64,000 nucleotides of DNA from Spirochaetia bacterium. Lineage in GTDB: Bacteria > Spirochaetota > Spirochaetia > WTKD01 > G963693115. The stretch covers positions 35,195 to 99,194 of the forward strand of contig CBDCGX010000052.1 of NCBI GenBank assembly GCA_965216965.1, in the 5' to 3' direction. Under the pieces are notes generated by a model. The model worked only from the letters and a program-made list of their open reading frames with translations, made no database searches and had not been told where the DNA came from. The position numbers and the translations under genes were made by a program. Below, piece by piece: positions 4,012-43,676 of the stretch; position 1 is the stretch's first letter, and each line of letters opens with the position of its first letter.

Positions 4012-5391
4012 CTATTTATATTGTATTGTTTTATTCTTAATTGCAGTAAGTACAAATAAAAGCAATATAATTGCAGTTATCCATGCACACACTAACACCG
4101 ATAAAAACACGCCATATATTCCTAAATGCAAGCTATACGCAAAAAGAGATATAAATATAAGGGGCAAAACTGTTTGCCTCACAACCAAGAATATCATCGG
4201 TACGAGGGGCTTTTTCATACCTTGTAATGTAGAAGATGAAAACGACATCATCTCATACGCAAAAAATGTGCCAAAAGCAAACCAAAGATACTGCCCCGTT
4301 GTAACAATAACTGTAGTATCTTGGGAAAAGATGCCAGCAACATATTTTCCAAGAACTACTATAGGAAACATTACAGTAAATTGAATAACAACAGCAAAAA
4401 GCAACGAAACACCAAGCGTCTTTTTAATTCTATTATATTTTTTAGCTCCATTATTTTGCCCTACCATAGCAGAAAGCGCCATTCCAATACCTATAGATGG
4501 GATAAGCGCAAGTTGTTCTATACGGAGACCAATACCATATGCAGCAACAACACTACTATCTCCAAGTCTTGTTAGAAAAAAATTCACAAGGGAGAGTCCA
4601 AAAGATGCCATCATTATTTGTAAAAAAATAGGAGCACCATACCATAAAATGGTGCTTGCTTCTTTAACAGTTATCATAAAGTTTTTAATTTTATCTAATT
4701 GAAGGCCACCATCTTTTACAACTTTATGAAATATTAAAACAAATCCAAGAAATTGTACCAATACTGTAGAAAATGCAATGCCTGTAATCCCCATAGCAGG
4801 AATAAATGTGAAAGATTTAAATTGCACCCCATACATGAAAACAGGATCAAGCCATACATTAATTATTGCATTCATTATAAAAATATTTCTCAAAAATTTT
4901 GTATTGCCAATACTCACAAGTCTCGCATTAAGAGTCATTGAAGATATAAAAAAGGGCATCCCATACGCCAAGGTGTCAATATACTCTGTACTATATATAA
5001 ACACTTTTCCATTAGCTCCCAATACTTTCAATATTTGAGGTCCTAATATCCTCACCAGAAACATGATAAGTACTCCAACTATAATAGAAAGAGTAAATGC
5101 TTTTTCTAAATATAATTTAGCTTTTCCTTCTAACTTCTCACCTAAAGCGTTTGAAATCAGCACTGTAGTTCCACTAGAAACAAGGTACGAAACCGCAATA
5201 GATAATAAAAATATCGGGAATGTAAGAGAAAATGCAGTAAGTGCCTCTATACCTATTTTCCCACCCCAAAATGAATCTGTCCAATTATATAGTGAATTAA
5301 ATAAGTGGCCAAACATTGCAGGTGTTGTAATAAACAACATATGTCTCCATATGCTTCCTTTTGTAAGATCATGTTGTTTCTGTAATTGCAT
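4012..5391 (-). CDS. MATE family efflux transporter
   Basis: DLTKGSIW N-terminus, many hydrophobic segments, AAYGIGLR and MVGQNNGAKKY motifs. Confidence 0.9.
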   Translation of the reverse strand: MQLQKQHDLTKGSIWRHMLFITTPAMFGHLFNSLYNWTDSFWGGKIGIEALTAFSLTFPIFLLSIAVSYLVSSGTTVLISNALGEKLEGKAKLYLEKAFTLSIIVGVLIMFLVRILGPQILKVLGANGKVFIYSTEYIDTLAYGMPFFISSMTLNARLVSIGNTKFLRNIFIMNAIINVWLDPVFMYGVQFKSFTFIPAMGITGIAFSTVLVQFLGFVLIFHKVVKDGGLQLDKIKNFMITVKEASTILWYGAPIFLQIMMASFGLSLVNFFLTRLGDSSVVAAYGIGLRIEQLALIPSIGIGMALSAMVGQNNGAKKYNRIKKTLGVSLLFAVVIQFTVMFPIVVLGKYVAGIFSQDTTVIVTTGQYLWFAFGTFFAYEMMSFSSSTLQGMKKPLVPMIFLVVRQTVLPLIFISLFAYSLHLGIYGVFLSVLVCAWITAIILLLFVLTAIKNKTIQYK

Positions 5392-5509
5392 ATATTCCCT
5401 TATAAATATGTATATTTATCACAAATCGCAATGAGATTTTCATCTCAATATGAAAAAGAAATAAAACTTTGCTTATAGATAATTTAAATTTCTAGTACTA
5501 GTAGCTCAA

Positions 5510-6586
5510 TTATAATAAAAAAGTCTTATCCATGCAAACACTATCCATACCGCACAAAACCATAATAAGCCTATCTATTCCTAGAGCAACACCACTACAA
5601 GGTGGAAGAGAAGGTTCTTCTAAAAATGATACTGGATATGGAATCTTTATACGTCGACTTCCTTTATTAATAAATTCATCTTGTGTATATTGTGAATGAA
5701 AAAAATCTTTTATTTTTTGAATATCTGTTTGTTCAGAATAACAATTTGCAATTTCCACTCCACCTATATATAATTCCCATCTCTGTGTCCATATAGAATT
5801 GTGTTCTATTGCAAGTGTAGGTATACTATTTGGATATTTTGTTATAAAAACAAATGCATCTTTTGGTAGTCGCGGTTCTATATAGTGGGTAAAAAGCATT
5901 AGAAATACATCTTCCATATCATAATGGCTTATATTTTTATCTGCAATGTTTGCAATGCTTAATGCTTCTTGAACAGAAGAAGAAGTGAGCACATCTACTA
6001 TCGGGATGTCTGTATAACGTTTAAATGCCTCTTCCACACTTATTACAATTACTTGTTCTGGAATTTCTTTTATTGATTCTATTATCTTGAAATTCTTATG
6101 GAAATTGCAAAGCCACAAAGGTAATTGTATGGTTTCAGATAATACAACATCTGTAACATGATATAAAAGATTTACACAATCTAAAATACTTTGATCAAAA
6201 GAACTTAAAACACGATACCATTCCAATAGTAAAAATTCATCTTTGTGTAAATTATCGCTTATTTCTTCTCTTCGAAAACTATGAGCAAACTCATATATAC
6301 CACAACATTTCTCTTCTTTTTCTTGTGCAATGCTCGCAAGTAAAGGCTTCAGGTTAACTTCAGGCGAAGGAATAAGATATTGTACATCACCTTCATTTAA
6401 GTATTCTTGAGATTTATTACTGTTGTGTCTCTTAGTATGTACGACAAACACATCTATATGTCTTTCGGGAATAAGTGCTGGCACCATCAAAGGGGTATGT
6501 ACTTCTATAAAGTTTTGCTTGTCCAAAAAACGCCGCATTGCAGAAAGAATACGAAATTGAATTTTCACATATGCATATATATTCAC
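5510..6586 (-). CDS. epmA: EF-P lysine ligase (EpmA/GenX, LysRS catalytic-domain paralog)
   Basis: FIEVHTP, PSPE, FRREE...H..EF..LEWYR, RWELYIGGVEIAN, SGVALGIDRL; no anticodon-binding domain. Confidence 0.85.
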   Translation of the reverse strand: MNIYAYVKIQFRILSAMRRFLDKQNFIEVHTPLMVPALIPERHIDVFVVHTKRHNSNKSQEYLNEGDVQYLIPSPEVNLKPLLASIAQEKEEKCCGIYEFAHSFRREEISDNLHKDEFLLLEWYRVLSSFDQSILDCVNLLYHVTDVVLSETIQLPLWLCNFHKNFKIIESIKEIPEQVIVISVEEAFKRYTDIPIVDVLTSSSVQEALSIANIADKNISHYDMEDVFLMLFTHYIEPRLPKDAFVFITKYPNSIPTLAIEHNSIWTQRWELYIGGVEIANCYSEQTDIQKIKDFFHSQYTQDEFINKGSRRIKIPYPVSFLEEPSLPPCSGVALGIDRLIMVLCGMDSVCMDKTFLL

Positions 6587-36436: not shown

Positions 36437-37375
36437 ATGTCTTTAAGTTCTTTAGCAAACGCACATTTACGCGATGGCATCAAAAACACAAAAAAATCTT
36501 CTCTTGCTATTTGTATTTTAGCAAGAGATTGTGAACGATATCTCAAAAAAACACTCAAAAAGATAGCACTCCTTCACAAATATTTTAAACATTGCGAATT
36601 TTTCATAGCAGAAAACAACAGTAAAGACTCTACCCCCCATATAATTTCACAATGGTGCAAAAAAGATATTCATCATAGACATATTATAGATGTATATACT
36701 TATTTTTCTCGTCATCATTCTTCAACACTTTCTTTTGTAAACATATTTGATAGCACAATCAACTCAAGTACAAAACACAACCACATAAGAACGCGTATAG
36801 AAAGAATGGCAATACTAAGAGATAGTGTTTTAGATGCTGCAAAAAAATCTTCTAAAAAGTTTGAGTATGTACTTATGTTGGATGCCGATATCTTCTGGTT
36901 TTCTATTAAAGGAATATTGCAATGTTTCTCTAGCTTTCTTCCCTCTTGGCATGCTCTTACCGCAAATGGAAGAGTGTTCTGTTGGAAATGCATACCCCCA
37001 TTTCAAAATATATACTATGACAGCTTTGCTGTAAAACCCATGTACGAAGCTATTTCTCCATTATCATGGCAAACACATTTACAAAAAACTCTCTCCCCCC
37101 TCAATAAACATGCTATGCTTTTCCCAGTAGAAAGTGCATTTGGAGCTATGGCATTATACCAATATAATGCCATACAAGATATTAAATATACTGATGCTAC
37201 TGAAGAAGATGGGTTTTCATTTTGCGAACATGTTTCGTTTCATAAACAAATGCGAAAATCAGGACATACAAACATTTTTATTAACCCATATATGATGCTC
37301 TATTATAATAATCCCATACCTTTTTCTTTTTATAGTATTATAAAAGCTGTTAAAAAAAGAAAAAAACATTTATAG
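36437..37375 (+). CDS. GT-A fold glycosyltransferase (paralog 1)
   Basis: LARDCE, ENNSKDST, RIERMAILRD, LDAD, YYDSFA, VESAFGAMALY, CEHVSFH. Confidence 0.75.
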   Translation: MSLSSLANAHLRDGIKNTKKSSLAICILARDCERYLKKTLKKIALLHKYFKHCEFFIAENNSKDSTPHIISQWCKKDIHHRHIIDVYTYFSRHHSSTLSFVNIFDSTINSSTKHNHIRTRIERMAILRDSVLDAAKKSSKKFEYVLMLDADIFWFSIKGILQCFSSFLPSWHALTANGRVFCWKCIPPFQNIYYDSFAVKPMYEAISPLSWQTHLQKTLSPLNKHAMLFPVESAFGAMALYQYNAIQDIKYTDATEEDGFSFCEHVSFHKQMRKSGHTNIFINPYMMLYYNNPIPFSFYSIIKAVKKRKKHL

Positions 37376-37411: not shown

Positions 37412-38455
37412 ATGATATTTCAAAATATAATTACACTTCAAAATATTTTCTCTTATAAAAAAGATGTAAAAATTGGTATTAAACAAGCAAAAAATGTGCA
37501 AGTTGCAATATGCTGTCTTGCACGAAATTGTGAAAAAAAAATCAAACACAATATGGCTTCTATTCTTTTGTTAAAAAAATATTTTTCTGCTATGCAGATT
37601 TATATCCTAGAAAACGATAGTACAGACCACACAAAAGAAACCTTACAAAAATATTCAAGCATGCACTCCTACATACACCTTTATGATTTTTCACTCTGTA
37701 AAGAGGCATTTAGAAACACCATTGATCTTCAAAAACTTAAAAGCATTATACATGATGAAGAAAAACTACTCACAAAAATAAGAATGATGAGAATGTCAAT
37801 TCTACGCGATAGTATTTTATATGCAATAAAAAAAACTGCATTTTTCCCAGACATCGTCATACAAATAGATATAGATGTACATTCATTTAGCGTTAAAGGA
37901 ATCTTACACTCTCTTGCCCATTACAATACATGGGATACTATATGTGCAAACGGAAGAAGTATTACCTTTTGTCAAAATCAAAAAAGTTATAATTTATTCT
38001 TTGATACATTTTCCTTTCTTCCTCATAATACAAAAGAAAATAAAGAGTATTTTGAACCAAGAGTAGATAATCAATGGATATATTCCTCCATCAAAAAAGG
38101 ACAGCCCCTATACCCTACACGTTCAGGGTTTGGAGGAATAAGTATATATAAATACGCTCTTATTCGCAATATTTCATATTATGATAGTGTCCAGCTAGAT
38201 AACTTTACGCAATGTGAACATGTTTCTTTTTATAAAAGTTTACGACAACAAGGATATAAAAAAATATATTTAAACCCTTCACTTTTAGTTTATTATAATA
38301 CTTTTATAGGAGCTCTTATATACGCAATAGGAGCACGGAATATAACATATAAAGGTCCATTTATAAAATTATTTATCCGCACATTACATTTTATATTGCT
38401 TCCAATAATATTATTATTACGACTATTTCTAAAAAAGAAAACTAATCGTTCATAA
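37412..38455 (+). CDS. GT-A fold glycosyltransferase (paralog 2)
   Basis: LARNCE, ENDSTDHT, RMMRMSILRD, IDID, FFDTFS, RSGFGGISIY, CEHVSFY. Confidence 0.75.
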   Translation: MIFQNIITLQNIFSYKKDVKIGIKQAKNVQVAICCLARNCEKKIKHNMASILLLKKYFSAMQIYILENDSTDHTKETLQKYSSMHSYIHLYDFSLCKEAFRNTIDLQKLKSIIHDEEKLLTKIRMMRMSILRDSILYAIKKTAFFPDIVIQIDIDVHSFSVKGILHSLAHYNTWDTICANGRSITFCQNQKSYNLFFDTFSFLPHNTKENKEYFEPRVDNQWIYSSIKKGQPLYPTRSGFGGISIYKYALIRNISYYDSVQLDNFTQCEHVSFYKSLRQQGYKKIYLNPSLLVYYNTFIGALIYAIGARNITYKGPFIKLFIRTLHFILLPIILLLRLFLKKKTNRS

Positions 38456-38472: not shown

Positions 38473-38494
38473 GCCTTGACTAAAAAGTCAAGGC
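38473..38494. terminator. Hairpin between convergent GT and nrdB
   Basis: GCCTTGACT-AAAA-AGTCAAGGC. Confidence 0.55.
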
Positions 38495-38495
38495 A

Positions 38496-39488
38496 TTACC
38501 ACTCTAGCTTTCCACCTACCTGATATTCAGTTACTCTTGTTTCAAAGAAGTTTTTTTCTTTTGAAAGATCTGTAGATTGACTCATCCATGGGAAAGGATT
38601 TTCTTTTTTATATTGAATAGGTAAATTAATCCTATCAAGTCGTCTATCAGCAATATATTCAACATAGTCACAAAATTGCTCTGCATTTATTCCCAAAATA
38701 CCATCAGGACATGCATCAAGTGCATATTTCTTTTCAAGATCTACTGCTTGTTTTACAAGATGTATTATTCCTTCCTTAAAACTATCTGTCCATATTGTAG
38801 GATTTTCTTTTACTATGGTATTAGTGAGATCTGCACCAAAAGCAAGGTGTAAACTTTCATCTCTCATTATGTATTCAAACTGCTCTCCTATACCAACCAT
38901 TTTGTTTTTTCGCTTAAGTGCAAGCATCATGGCAAATCCGGCATAAAAATAAATACCTTCCATTATTATGTAATACCCTATAAGATCATGTACAAATTTT
39001 TGAATGTTTTCATCTCCTTCTGTAGTAAAACTAGGATTAAAAACATTCTTCGTAAGATTAATAACGAAATCATCCTTATCTTTAATTGATGGAACCGTTT
39101 CGTACATTGAAAATATACTATCGGGATCAAGACCAAGAGAATCACAACAATAAATAAAACAATCAGTATGGATTGCTTCCTCAAATGCTTGTCTTAACAA
39201 ATACTGTCTGCACTCAGGATTTGTTACATGATTATATACTGCAAGTACAATATTATTTGCAGTAAGTGATTCTGCCGTCGAGAAAAAGCCAACATTCCAC
39301 ACAATCAGTCGTCGCTCTGTTTCTGTCAAAACATCCTTAGACTTCCATTGTTCAATGTCCTGTTGCATTGGAATTTCTTCTGGCGTCCAATTATTTGCAA
39401 CCCCATCTTTATAATGAGCCCTCGCCCATGTATATGTCATAGGAAGGATTTTATTGGGATCCGTTTTATTATTATTAATAATACTCAT
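38496..39488 (-). CDS. nrdB: Ribonucleotide reductase beta subunit, class Ic (R2c) signature
   Basis: WTPEEIPM, FFSTAESL (Glu ligand), EEAIHTDCF (Phe at the radical-Tyr position), MEGIYFY, RDESLH, NFFETRVTEY. Confidence 0.93.
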   Translation of the reverse strand: MSIINNNKTDPNKILPMTYTWARAHYKDGVANNWTPEEIPMQQDIEQWKSKDVLTETERRLIVWNVGFFSTAESLTANNIVLAVYNHVTNPECRQYLLRQAFEEAIHTDCFIYCCDSLGLDPDSIFSMYETVPSIKDKDDFVINLTKNVFNPSFTTEGDENIQKFVHDLIGYYIIMEGIYFYAGFAMMLALKRKNKMVGIGEQFEYIMRDESLHLAFGADLTNTIVKENPTIWTDSFKEGIIHLVKQAVDLEKKYALDACPDGILGINAEQFCDYVEYIADRRLDRINLPIQYKKENPFPWMSQSTDLSKEKNFFETRVTEYQVGGKLEW

Positions 39489-39514
39489 TGTTTCTCCTTA
39501 AATTTATTATATTA

Positions 39515-42328
39515 TTACTGACACGCTTCACAATCTGGATCTAAAATATTACATGCAGAATTAACCTGTGTTGCAGGTTCTGTTATATTTGACTCCTTTT
39601 CATGACGAATATCTGTAGCTTTATTAGTTGTTTTATATTCTCTTTTTTGTGTATATCCATATTCTTTTGCATCAAGTGTGGATTTTTCAATTTGACTCGC
39701 TCCAAGGCTCCTAAGATAATACGTTGTCTTTACTCCCATTCTCCATGCAGCAACATATATATCATGCAATTTTTTTCCAGAAACCCCCTTTACAAATACA
39801 TTATGAGATTGGCTCTGATCTATCCATTTTGACCGCAGTGCTGTAAGTCTCATAAGCACTATTGGGTTTATCTCAAATGTTTCCTTATATAATTGTTTAA
39901 GCGAATCGTCTATTTCTTCTATGTAATCTATATTCCCATCATAGTATTTTATTTTTTCTAGCATCTTTTCTGACCACTGCCCTCGTACTTTAAGATCATT
40001 TACAAGGTATTTATTAATTATGGTAAACTCTCCACTCATGTTTGCTTTTACATAAATATTCTTATAAATGGGTTCAATACAAGGAAAACATCCCGCTATA
40101 TTAGAAATAGTTGCCGTTGGTGCAATTGCCATCGTGTTACTATTTCTCATACCATATTTTTTTATGTGAGCTCGAACATTACTCCAATCCATACGAATAG
40201 TTCTATCTACATCAATTTCTCTTCCTCGCTCTTTCTCTAGGAGATCAAGAGTGTCTATAGGAAGCAATCCTTTATCCCATTTTGATCCCGAAAAACTTTT
40301 ATACACACCCCGTTCTTTTGCAAGCTCAGATGATCCTAAAATTGCATGATAAGATATAAATTCCATTGTGGAATCAACAAATTCAGCCGTCTTGTTATCT
40401 GAAAAAGAAAAATTAAGAGTAAATAAAACATCCTGAAGTCCCATTATTCCAAGTCCCACCGGTCTATGTTTGAGGTTGCTTCTCTTTGCTTCTTCTGTTG
40501 GATAAAAATTAATATCAATAACATTATCAAGCATTCGCATTGCTGTTCTTATTGTTTTCTCAATTTGATATTGATTAAGCCCATCTTGTTCTACATGACG
40601 AGCAAGGTTTATAGATCCCAAATTACATACGGCCGTTTCTTCCTTTGAAGAATTAAGTGTAATTTCTGTACAAAGATTACTACTTCTCACAACTCCCATA
40701 TGATCCTGCGGACTTCTTATATTACAAGGGTCTTTAAAAGTAATCCATGGATGACCTGTCTCAAAAAGCCTTGTAAGCATCTTTCTCCACAATTTCATCG
40801 CGCTCACTTTCTTAAAAGATTTTAACTCTCCTTTATCTGCCATCATTTCATATTCTTTATAACGTTTTTCAAACTTTGATCCATATAGTTCATGTAAATC
40901 AGAAGTTTCATTTGGAGAAAAAAGAGTCCACTCTACATCTTCTTCAACCCGCTTCATAAATAAATCAGGTATCCAATTTGCCGTATTCATATCATGGGTG
41001 CGCCTTCTTTCATCACCTGTATTTCGCCTAAGATCAAGAAAATCTTCTACATCAAGATGCCACGTTTCAAGATAGGCACATGTTGCCCCTCTTCTTTTTC
41101 CACTCCTATTTATTGCAAGCGTTGTATCGTTTGCTATTTTTAAGAAAGGTATTATTCCTTGGCTTTCTACATTAGTACTTCTTATACGTGCATTTGTAGC
41201 TCTCACTGATGTCCAATCGTTCCCTATTCCTCCGGACCACTTTGCCATTTGCGCATTATCTCCAATACACTTAAAAATATTCCCCAAATCATCGCTTATA
41301 GTACTAATATAACATGAGCTTAACTGTGGATGTGTAAGCCCAGCATGAAAAAGCGTCGGTGTAGAAGGTATATATAAAAGTTGAGACATAAGATCATAAA
41401 ATTCTTTTGCTCTCTTGTTTTTATCATCCTCATTTATAGCAAGGCCCATTGCTACGCGCATCCAAAATGCTTGTGGTATTTCTATTCTGCGGGTTTCATA
41501 ACGAACAAAATATCTATCATACAATGTTCTTATACCAATATATGAAAGAAACTCATCTCGTTTTGGTCGCAATGCTTGCTTAAGATATTCAAAATCAAAA
41601 GTCAGTAGCTCCTTGGAAAAGAAACTCTTTTCAACCCCATATGCAATATTTTTCACAAAGACATTTTGATATTTCTCATACAAGTCCTCTCCCGAATCAA
41701 CATTGTCATCTATTGTTTCTTTATAAAGTTTTTGTAACAAAAGCCGCGAAGCAATTTCATCATATCTTGTATCTCTTTCTAAAAACGAAATTGTAGAAAG
41801 AATCACAGCCTCTTCTATTTCTGTAGTAGAAATTCCATCAAAAATATTTTTTTCAAGTTCTACAACAATAGGATCAAGTGGAACTTCATTTGTATCTATA
41901 TCTCGACTTACCCTGCGAAGTGTTGAAAGTACTTTGCTGAAATTAAATCGTGTCTCTCTTCCATTCCGTTTTGTAATATTTAATGCATGAAGTTTTTCTT
42001 GTTTACTTACTGTTTTTTCAAGACGGCATTCAGCATGCTTTTGTCGATATATGATATATCCTTTTGCTACCGTTGTATGTTTACTATGCATCAAGACATC
42101 TTCAACAGTATCTTGAATTCTCTCTATGTGTACCATGTCCTTATGTTTTTGGTGAAGATCTTTCTCAATGGTCCTTACAAGATTATCAATGTCATCATCC
42201 CCTATATATTGACCACACGCTTTAAATGCTTTTTGAATAGCAATACATATGAAGGATGCATCATATACAACTTGCTCTCCATCCCTTTTTACTGCTGTTG
42301 TAAAACCTACTGTAGATCCTGTAATCAT
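39515..42328 (-). CDS. nrdA: Ribonucleotide reductase alpha subunit with two N-terminal ATP cones
   Basis: VKRDG and TKRNG cone starts; PSTPTL, LSSCY, SNLCTEI, CNLGSINL, APTATI, KTTYYLR, C-terminal CEACQ. Confidence 0.96.
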   Translation of the reverse strand: MITGSTVGFTTAVKRDGEQVVYDASFICIAIQKAFKACGQYIGDDDIDNLVRTIEKDLHQKHKDMVHIERIQDTVEDVLMHSKHTTVAKGYIIYRQKHAECRLEKTVSKQEKLHALNITKRNGRETRFNFSKVLSTLRRVSRDIDTNEVPLDPIVVELEKNIFDGISTTEIEEAVILSTISFLERDTRYDEIASRLLLQKLYKETIDDNVDSGEDLYEKYQNVFVKNIAYGVEKSFFSKELLTFDFEYLKQALRPKRDEFLSYIGIRTLYDRYFVRYETRRIEIPQAFWMRVAMGLAINEDDKNKRAKEFYDLMSQLLYIPSTPTLFHAGLTHPQLSSCYISTISDDLGNIFKCIGDNAQMAKWSGGIGNDWTSVRATNARIRSTNVESQGIIPFLKIANDTTLAINRSGKRRGATCAYLETWHLDVEDFLDLRRNTGDERRRTHDMNTANWIPDLFMKRVEEDVEWTLFSPNETSDLHELYGSKFEKRYKEYEMMADKGELKSFKKVSAMKLWRKMLTRLFETGHPWITFKDPCNIRSPQDHMGVVRSSNLCTEITLNSSKEETAVCNLGSINLARHVEQDGLNQYQIEKTIRTAMRMLDNVIDINFYPTEEAKRSNLKHRPVGLGIMGLQDVLFTLNFSFSDNKTAEFVDSTMEFISYHAILGSSELAKERGVYKSFSGSKWDKGLLPIDTLDLLEKERGREIDVDRTIRMDWSNVRAHIKKYGMRNSNTMAIAPTATISNIAGCFPCIEPIYKNIYVKANMSGEFTIINKYLVNDLKVRGQWSEKMLEKIKYYDGNIDYIEEIDDSLKQLYKETFEINPIVLMRLTALRSKWIDQSQSHNVFVKGVSGKKLHDIYVAAWRMGVKTTYYLRSLGASQIEKSTLDAKEYGYTQKREYKTTNKATDIRHEKESNITEPATQVNSACNILDPDCEACQ

Positions 42329-42404: not shown

Positions 42405-42461
42405 CATACATATTTAGTGTCTTTTTCAAAAAAAAAGCATAAACCACACTACATATAGTGT
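42405..42461. promoter_or_regulatory. Tandem NrdR boxes
   Basis: ACACTACATATAGTGT (42446-42461) and ACACTAAATATGTATG (minus strand, 42420-42405), 41 bp apart, upstream of nrdA. Consensus is acaCwAtATaTwGtgt. Confidence 0.8.
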
Positions 42462-42536: not shown

Positions 42537-43676
42537 TTACATATCTAAAAGATGATGATAAAACTTCCTATATTTTCCTGCAATAATCTCTGAAGAAAGA
42601 TATTTTTGCAAATGCATTCGCTCCTTTTGAGCACATGTAATATAATATTTGTAGTTTTTTAAAAAAACATGTGCCTTTTCTGCAAATAAAAGTGGTTTTT
42701 TACAATCTATAGTCCAACAAGAATGCAAGAAAATCTCTCTCATAACTGGAATATCATTTGTAATAACAGGTATTCCTTGTAGCAAAGCTTCACATGGAAC
42801 TAATCCAAATCCTTCATTGTCAGAAGGGAACAATACAACATGGGCTTCTCTCATACATTCCTTTACATTGTGAATATGTCCGAGTAATTTTACATGTGGA
42901 AGATGATTATCTTGTATATATTGTTGTATAATTTTCTTTAACGGTCCCTCTCCTGCAAATAGAAGACTTGCGTTTGCATTCTTTTTCAAAAAGTAAGAAA
43001 ACATTCTTAACACATTTATATGTCCCTTCCCTTTATAAAGCCGCGATACAACAAGAAAAACAGGCTGTTGTATACTACAATTCATTATTTTTTGTTTTTT
43101 TGCATACCTTTGCTCTTTTTCTTCTGGAACCATATGTGCATGAGTAAGTGGATTATAAATCACCTCACTATACACTGCAGAATGCTTTCTCTTTTTTTTA
43201 AGTAATTTAGCATATGTTTGCAAACAAGACTGTGAGACTGCTGTAACAGCATTAAATTTGTACAAGAGAAATTTTAAAACATATTTAGTAAACACACTAA
43301 AATAATCAAGATTATTATGAAATGTAGCACACAGCACATACTTATTTTTTGTTCTTGATCTATACGAAACCCCTGCAATACAATAAGCCCTTCCCAAATG
43401 AGCATGAACAACATCTGGATTACACTTCATTAAAAACGCTTTATATTGTAACAGTCCCTTAATAACTTCTCTTCTTTTACAATGCAAGCTATATATAGGA
43501 ATATGTAATTCTTGTAACGCCCTATATGCCTGTGTACTATTATCTACCTTTTCATGAGACAACACTATAATATCAAACGATTTTTGTAAATATAACGCTA
43601 TGTCTAAAAAGACTGTTGATACTGCACTGTCATCAAAGCAAGTAGTAAACCATATTATTTTTTTCTTTACGCTCAT
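42537..43676 (-). CDS. Glycosyltransferase family 4
   Basis: VVHAH, VSRLYKGKG, FPSDNEGFGLVPCEAL, PVITND. Confidence 0.88.
   Translation of the reverse strand: MSVKKKIIWFTTCFDDSAVSTVFLDIALYLQKSFDIIVLSHEKVDNSTQAYRALQELHIPIYSLHCKRREVIKGLLQYKAFLMKCNPDVVHAHLGRAYCIAGVSYRSRTKNKYVLCATFHNNLDYFSVFTKYVLKFLLYKFNAVTAVSQSCLQTYAKLLKKKRKHSAVYSEVIYNPLTHAHMVPEEKEQRYAKKQKIMNCSIQQPVFLVVSRLYKGKGHINVLRMFSYFLKKNANASLLFAGEGPLKKIIQQYIQDNHLPHVKLLGHIHNVKECMREAHVVLFPSDNEGFGLVPCEALLQGIPVITNDIPVMREIFLHSCWTIDCKKPLLFAEKAHVFLKNYKYYITCAQKERMHLQKYLSSEIIAGKYRKFYHHLLDM

Follow-up and report, generated by a model that had tools for sequence, protein, structure and literature searches.

In class Ic ribonucleotide reductases (RNRs), a Mn(IV)/Fe(III) cofactor is used in place of a tyrosyl radical and is linked to a cysteine of NrdA by a Trp/Tyr pathway, and O2, or in the chlamydial enzyme H2O2, is required to assemble a class I cofactor (PMC8463856). 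The small subunits of this class (R2c, or NrdBzc) are defined by first-sphere ligands in the order E-E-H-E-E-H, a second sphere of E and D, and a Phe, Leu, or Val at the tyrosine site (PMC6370689), and have been described outside Chlamydia, in bacteria and archaea, since 2004 (PMC4118035, PMC3824934, PMC6370689). Among the papers listed in a literature search on class Ic RNR in spirochetes, none combined these subjects, and the RNRdb paper names spirochetes only in the title of a reference. Here, an nrdA-nrdB locus of this kind is described from a 64,000-nucleotide stretch of DNA (the window) belonging to a genome of the Spirochaetia of 1.69 Mb in 58 contigs, with 33.5% GC and 88% completeness (Table 1).

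Table 1. Features of the nrdA-nrdB locus, in window coordinates.
Feature	Coordinates	Strand	Description	Basis or comparison
nrdB	38496..39488	-	330-aa class Ic (R2c / NrdBzc) RNR beta subunit	ORF; PDB, NCBIfam, and Pfam matches
Glu73 codon GAA	39270..39272	-	first metal ligand, motif FFSTAESL	aligns to C. trachomatis Glu89
Phe111 codon TTT	39156..39158	-	radical-tyrosine position of class Ia/Ib, motif EEAIHTDCF	aligns to C. trachomatis Phe127
nrdA	39515..42328	-	937-aa class I alpha subunit (NrdAz-type), two N-terminal ATP-cones	NCBIfam, Pfam, PDB
nrdA-nrdB spacer	39489..39514	-	26 bp	Shine-Dalgarno-like AAGGAG 6 nt before nrdB ATG
ACACTATATGTAGTGT palindrome	42446..42461	-	candidate NrdR operator	in 208-bp region upstream of nrdA
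promoter-like TTGTTA-18-TATACT	42494-42465	-	upstream of nrdA	ACACTATATGTAGTGT palindrome just downstream
hairpin GCCTTGAC-TTTTTA-GTCAAGGC	38473..38494	-	directly after nrdB stop	RNA fold -15.0 kcal/mol

Translation of the nrdB open reading frame exactly reproduced the codons, motifs, and spacing from which a preliminary description of this DNA had proposed a class Ic enzyme, with Phe111 four residues after His107 and 38 residues after Glu73. The equivalence of these residues to Glu89 and Phe127 of Chlamydia trachomatis (Ct) R2c, also proposed there, was confirmed in the HMMER alignment to 1SYY, and in the alignment to 2ANI, an engineered F127Y form of Ct R2c, the Tyr lay directly opposite Phe111. 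Overall identity to Ct R2c was 59% across 327 aligned columns. When NrdB was compared by phmmer with all PDB chains, the top three matches were Ct R2c chains (1SYY, 4D8F, and 2ANI; E ∼1e-133), and the fourth R2 chain was 6Y2N (E 2e-118), which we believe to be another R2c; the next non-R2c chain followed at E 4e-36, E. coli class Ia chains at ∼1e-18, and class Ib, class Id, and R2lox chains between ∼1e-13 and 1e-7. NrdB scored well above the cut-off of NCBIfam NF005550 (542.6 vs. 309 bits), and the match to Pfam PF00268 (Ribonuc_red_sm) was 7.7e-86.

All six first-sphere ligands are present in NrdB (E73, E104, H107, E177, E211, and H214, corresponding to Ct E89, E120, H123, E193, E227, and H230), as are the second-sphere residues E103 and D210 (Ct E119 and D226), and the redox-inert Phe111 occupies the position of E. 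coli Y122 and Ct F127. W34, Y206, and Y322 occupy the alignment positions of Ct W51, Y222, and Y338, the electron-relay residues of activation and catalysis in C. trachomatis. Y322 lies in the motif FFETRVTEYQ, which aligns to the R1-binding C-terminal tail of Ct R2c, so that the C-terminal Tyr is conserved. Affiliation with class Ic is indicated alike by the top PDB match, the NCBIfam model, and the phylogeny described below, in which Ct falls inside the same clade. In class Ia and Ib subunits, the first ligand is Asp and the radical Tyr stands four positions beyond the first His, where NrdB has Glu73 and Phe111; in class Id (NrdBi), position 7 of the second sphere is Cys or Ser and the Tyr is retained, where NrdB has Glu103 and Phe, and the presumed class Id chains 6CWO and 6SF4 matched at ∼1e-8 only. 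Class Id and class Ia identities were rejected on this residue pattern and these scores.

The likeness to Ct R2c (1SYY, 4D8F, 4M1I; NrdBzc) therefore spans the full length of the protein, and takes in the ligands, the second sphere, the Phe site, the relay Trp and two Tyr residues, and the C-terminal tail. With nrdA adjoining and no second RNR found in the genome, these features make it well supported that NrdB is a genuine Chlamydia-type class Ic (tyrosine-free) RNR small subunit, and the original assignment was borne out by every sequence feature tested (ligands, second sphere, Phe111, affiliation, and tail). The two proteins differ in host, a spirochete rather than a chlamydia, and near the metal site, where NrdB reads HTDCF-IYCC and Ct R2c HTHTF-LYIC. 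The Cys110 beside Phe111 (window 39147-39161, residues 110-114) is rare, occurring in 13 of the best 120 database homologs and five of 93 homologs from genome loci, while Cys114 and Cys115 are near-universal in the R2c clade of the window NrdB, Ct having Ile-Cys there; three cysteines are thus found near the presumed high-valent metal site.

The partner alpha subunit scored 1266 bits against NCBIfam NF005544 (cut-off, 965), and contains two Pfam ATP-cones followed by the all-alpha Ribonuc_red_lgN and barrel Ribonuc_red_lgC domains. Its best PDB match was 5IM3, the P. aeruginosa alpha subunit; the alignment ran end to end (E 4e-287), with the C-terminal CEACQ included. The catalytic cysteines C339, C553, and C568 (in SSC339Y, N551-L-C553-T-E555, and at C568), the radical dyad Y870-Y871, and the C-terminal C933-E-A-C936 were all identified, and a cognate alpha gene with full catalytic motifs thus stands 26 bp upstream of nrdB. 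In its NrdAz-type architecture and two ATP-cones, the protein resembles P. aeruginosa NrdA, the closest solved alpha subunit; however, the P. aeruginosa RNR is a class Ia enzyme with two ATP-cones (PMC9669993), whereas the beta partner in the window is of the Phe type, which shows that the subclass cannot be read from the alpha subunit by itself (PMC6370689). Chlamydial R1 differs in having three ATP-cones (PMC9669993), and the chlamydial-type NCBIfam model NF009029 (1046 positions) matched NrdA only from model position 119, below its cut-off.

The short spacer and the AAGGAG preceding nrdB suggest that nrdA and nrdB are co-transcribed, and their order on one strand was kept in 51 of the 91 loci holding nrdB. 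In same-genus locus L001, however, nrdA and nrdB are 1.7 kb apart and separated by two inserted genes (4365-5297 and 5427-5981), whose products are rich in repeats and hydrophobic at the N-terminus; the gap is 0-26 bp in the window and in other relatives. Upstream of nrdA, the ACACTATATGTAGTGT palindrome resembles an NrdR box, and NrdR is encoded on another contig (G000:C19:12756-13205; 163 bits vs. a cut-off of 125). As a single clear site, the palindrome is tentatively proposed as an NrdR operator, and its reading is ambiguous: to judge from their score, hairpin and T-run together could equally well terminate the glycosyltransferase gene upstream, and the NrdR-box pattern, searched for upstream of nrdA, was recovered in none of the relatives L001-L004 and in just three of 39 loci. 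On visual inspection, similar boxes form an imperfect tandem upstream of nrdA in L001. The hairpin that follows nrdB is likely a two-way terminator between convergent genes, and was missing from the consensus terminator scan because no T-run follows it on the minus strand. The convergent genes (36437-37375 and 37412-38455, plus strand) are tandem diverged paralogs with weak CAP59-mannosyltransferase/GT2 matches, and on the other side, upstream of nrdA, is the gene for a GT4 glycosyltransferase (42537-43676). The operon is embedded in a glycosyltransferase-rich region.

To place NrdB among its relatives, 5.8 billion proteins were searched, and the best 120 of at least 8000 candidates were examined. 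These 120 were 76-86% identical to NrdB, all had the Glu/Phe pair and the six ligands, and they included proteins from Spirochaeta cellobiosiphila, Spirochaetaceae and Spirochaetales MAGs, Dependentiae, and several DPANN archaea; the S. cellobiosiphila sequence, 81% identical to NrdB, is a named protein from a cultured organism. A scan of one genome per species gave 442 encoding stretches, of which the best 80 came from Spirochaetia, Acidobacteriota, Babeliales/Dependentiae, Woesearchaeota, Nanoarchaeota, Micrarchaeota, and others. The complete signature W-E-E-H-F-E-E-H-Y was found in all 93 full-length homologs from the scan loci and the relatives' loci, and a distant paralog (L096, 27% identity), serving as an internal control, had W-D-E-H-Y-E-E-H-Y. 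One Spirochaetia genome (L095, G038:C1:25228-25788) has just a 187-residue R2c-like segment (query 120-306, 72% identity), situated within an open frame of 421 aa from which the N-terminal ligands are missing and which may be a fusion or a remnant.

The maximum-likelihood tree covered close members of the R2c clade together with Ct and a single outgroup. Within this sampling, NrdB fell within a clade of same-genus and same-family Spirochaetia MAGs (99% SH-aLRT), Spirochaetota clustered strongly (two label changes vs. 15.7 in shuffles), and Ct lay inside the wider R2c clade on a long branch. The nearest genomes being Spirochaetia MAGs, a spirochete origin is supported, in agreement with the spirochete-like genome recognized in the preliminary description. 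Its suggestion of a possible new lineage for class Ic was not upheld: public Spirochaetota orthologs are 73-84% identical to NrdB (S. cellobiosiphila among them), and dozens of these sequences share the Glu/Phe signature. Compared with the R2c proteins of Spirochaetia/Spirochaetales MAGs and S. cellobiosiphila, identity was 73-86%, with the same signature and mostly the same nrdA-nrdB arrangement, and 14-16% of positions differ from the closest public protein. Since near-identical copies occur in many public spirochete, archaeal, and other genomes, NrdB is a routine new ortholog in a well-studied enzyme family, and the class Ic operon is inherited vertically at the order level in this lineage.

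Among the R2c proteins from DPANN archaea, Dependentiae, Acidobacteriota, and Spirochaetota (L005-L080), mutual identity is 75-80%. So close a similarity between domains is unusual, and points either to extreme constraint or to horizontal transfer at a high frequency. For this clade (75-86%; Spirochaetota, Dependentiae, Acidobacteriota, and several DPANN phyla), a broader scenario can be put forward as a conjecture, one that we consider unlikely: an oxidant-tolerant, iron-sparing RNR would have spread horizontally and repeatedly into small-genome, partner-dependent lineages, and the spirochete order would have swapped the class II/III RNRs usual in the Spirochaetia for class Ic on moving to a micro-oxic, possibly host-associated niche.

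The RNR inventory of the 88% complete window genome consisted of one PF02867 alpha subunit and one PF00268 beta subunit, and no NrdD was found in that assembly. The order's eight further genomes, 1.4-2.6 Mb in size and in four cases single-contig, each had an R2c ortholog and one alpha subunit, and NrdD was absent from all eight, so that the class Ic pair was the sole RNR in nine of nine genomes of this small-genome order and is its only dNTP source. Elsewhere in the class, NrdD was present in 25 of 32 sampled genomes, and most had an alpha subunit that matched more distantly (E about 1e-106 to 1e-130); these alphas are probably class II-like, because their genomes had no match to the window NrdB. 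Outside the order, a full-length R2c together with a strongly scoring alpha was found in only three of the sampled class genomes. Across an even sample of 400 other Spirochaetota, three had an R2c ortholog at E ≤ 1e-100; class Ic is thus rare in the phylum and fixed in the order.

By homology, NrdB would assemble a heterodinuclear site with Mn in site 1 near Phe111 and Fe in site 2, which O2 or H2O2 would oxidize to Mn(IV)/Fe(III), with Mn(IV) storing the oxidizing equivalent in place of the tyrosyl radical. In the catalytic cycle, Mn(IV) would be reversibly reduced via Trp34 and the C-terminal Tyr322, and the hole would pass to NrdA Tyr870/Tyr871 and on to Cys553, starting ribonucleotide reduction; the NrdA Cys933/Cys936 pair would then re-reduce the active site, and the two ATP-cones, and probably NrdR, would regulate the enzyme. 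The structure of the genes, their residue pattern and homology, the position in the tree, and the RNR inventory are read directly from sequence; the Mn/Fe cofactor of the window NrdB, and likewise the identity of the metals, the chemistry of the radical, the regulation, and the dependence on oxygen in this scheme, are inferred from them. Because a class I cofactor needs O2 or H2O2, a micro-oxic or oxidant-exposed lifestyle is predicted, and with class Ic as the sole RNR of the order, DNA synthesis would depend on access to one of these oxidants. A cytochrome bd oxidase is present in the genome, consistent with a micro-oxic lifestyle able to supply O2, and no heme-copper oxidase was found there. 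A metal ABC operon (G000:C3, ∼63.2-65.1 kb) encodes a 78-aa Cys/His-rich protein, an ABC ATPase, and an ABC-3 permease (PF00950, 8.5e-37); searches of the 88% complete assembly for a TroA/ZnuA-type binding protein (PF01297) and for an Nramp Mn importer (PF01566) found no match to either.

Taken together, nrdA-nrdB is very probably a functional class Ic RNR operon of the C. trachomatis type, Mn/Fe by homology, and the vertically inherited sole RNR of the order. The Glu and Phe codons are each a single base from those of an ordinary class Ia gene (GAA vs. GAT/GAC for Asp, TTT vs. TAT for Tyr) and could in principle be assembly or sequencing errors; however, Glu73 and Phe111 were invariant in 120 of 120 best database homologs and 93 of 93 full-length homologs from genome loci, and thus reflect neither chance nor sequencing error, the class Ia-like L096 has Asp and Tyr in the same alignment columns, and NrdB as a whole lies in the R2c clade and is just 27% identical to L096, making an error exceedingly improbable. 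A Phe at the tyrosine site and an Mn/Fe centre are likewise found in R2-like ligand-binding oxidases (R2lox; PMC3824934), and R2lox models matched NrdB weakly (36-65 bits), as might be expected if it were such a protein, or another ferritin-like oxidase, and no RNR subunit. Every one of these NCBIfam scores was nevertheless well under its cut-off (194-346 bits), PDB R2lox chains matched at ∼1e-11 or weaker, the R1-binding C-terminus with Tyr322 is conserved, and the gene lies 26 bp from nrdA and encodes the sole beta subunit of the genome. An R2lox identity is effectively refuted by the sub-cut-off scores, the Tyr322 tail, and the nrdA neighbor, and an oxidase reading has virtually no chance of being correct. 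A true member of the R2c clade could also hold a homodinuclear site (Fe/Fe or Mn/Mn) in this organism, given that the R2c scaffold can mis-metallate (PMC8463856), that, as of 2014, Mn/Fe had not been demonstrated in vivo for any R2c (PMC4118035), and that no canonical Mn importer (PF01297, PF01566) was detected in the assembly; on the other hand, all first- and second-sphere residues are identical to those of Ct R2c and an ABC-3 metal importer is present, and a homodinuclear site is judged quite unlikely.

The preliminary description had further inferred that the enzyme adapts its bearer to the oxidative or nitrosative defences of a host, and that it may mark a new class Ic lineage; on this reading, it would have been acquired or kept specifically for that purpose. 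Genomes in the order are small (1.4-2.6 Mb, with 33.5% GC here), and many carriers of close orthologs belong to Dependentiae/Babeliales and DPANN archaea, groups generally regarded as host- or partner-dependent. Resistance of Mn(IV)/Fe(III) to NO and H2O2 is, moreover, a published hypothesis for R2c (PMC4118035). However, environmental MAGs of Spirochaetales (sediment and groundwater), Acidobacteriota, and Fibrobacterota commonly carry close orthologs, and DPANN archaea are among the environmental carriers as well. Inheritance of the gene is vertical throughout the order, so that it is no recent acquisition. S. cellobiosiphila, which is free-living, is also a carrier, and the dozens of public Spirochaetota sequences with the same signature speak against a new lineage. 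Host-defence adaptation is not specifically supported here and sits poorly with so many environmental carriers, and we consider it, like the new lineage joined to it, improbable.

For enzymology, the class Ic operon described here carries little weight, because it adds one more ortholog to a family that already has solved structures and detailed spectroscopy; at ∼40% divergence from the chlamydial enzyme, the spirochete R2c is nonetheless a possible comparison protein for studies of Mn/Fe site selectivity. The sole-RNR status of class Ic across the order is one modest new point, and its value is ecological: an entire small-genome order of Spirochaetia appears to rely on a single RNR, of class Ic and activated by O2 or H2O2, whereas sampled genomes of the class mostly carry the anaerobic class III RNR and/or a class II-like large subunit. 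The order is thus predicted to need at least micro-oxic conditions, together with Mn and Fe, to replicate, a prediction that could aid its cultivation.
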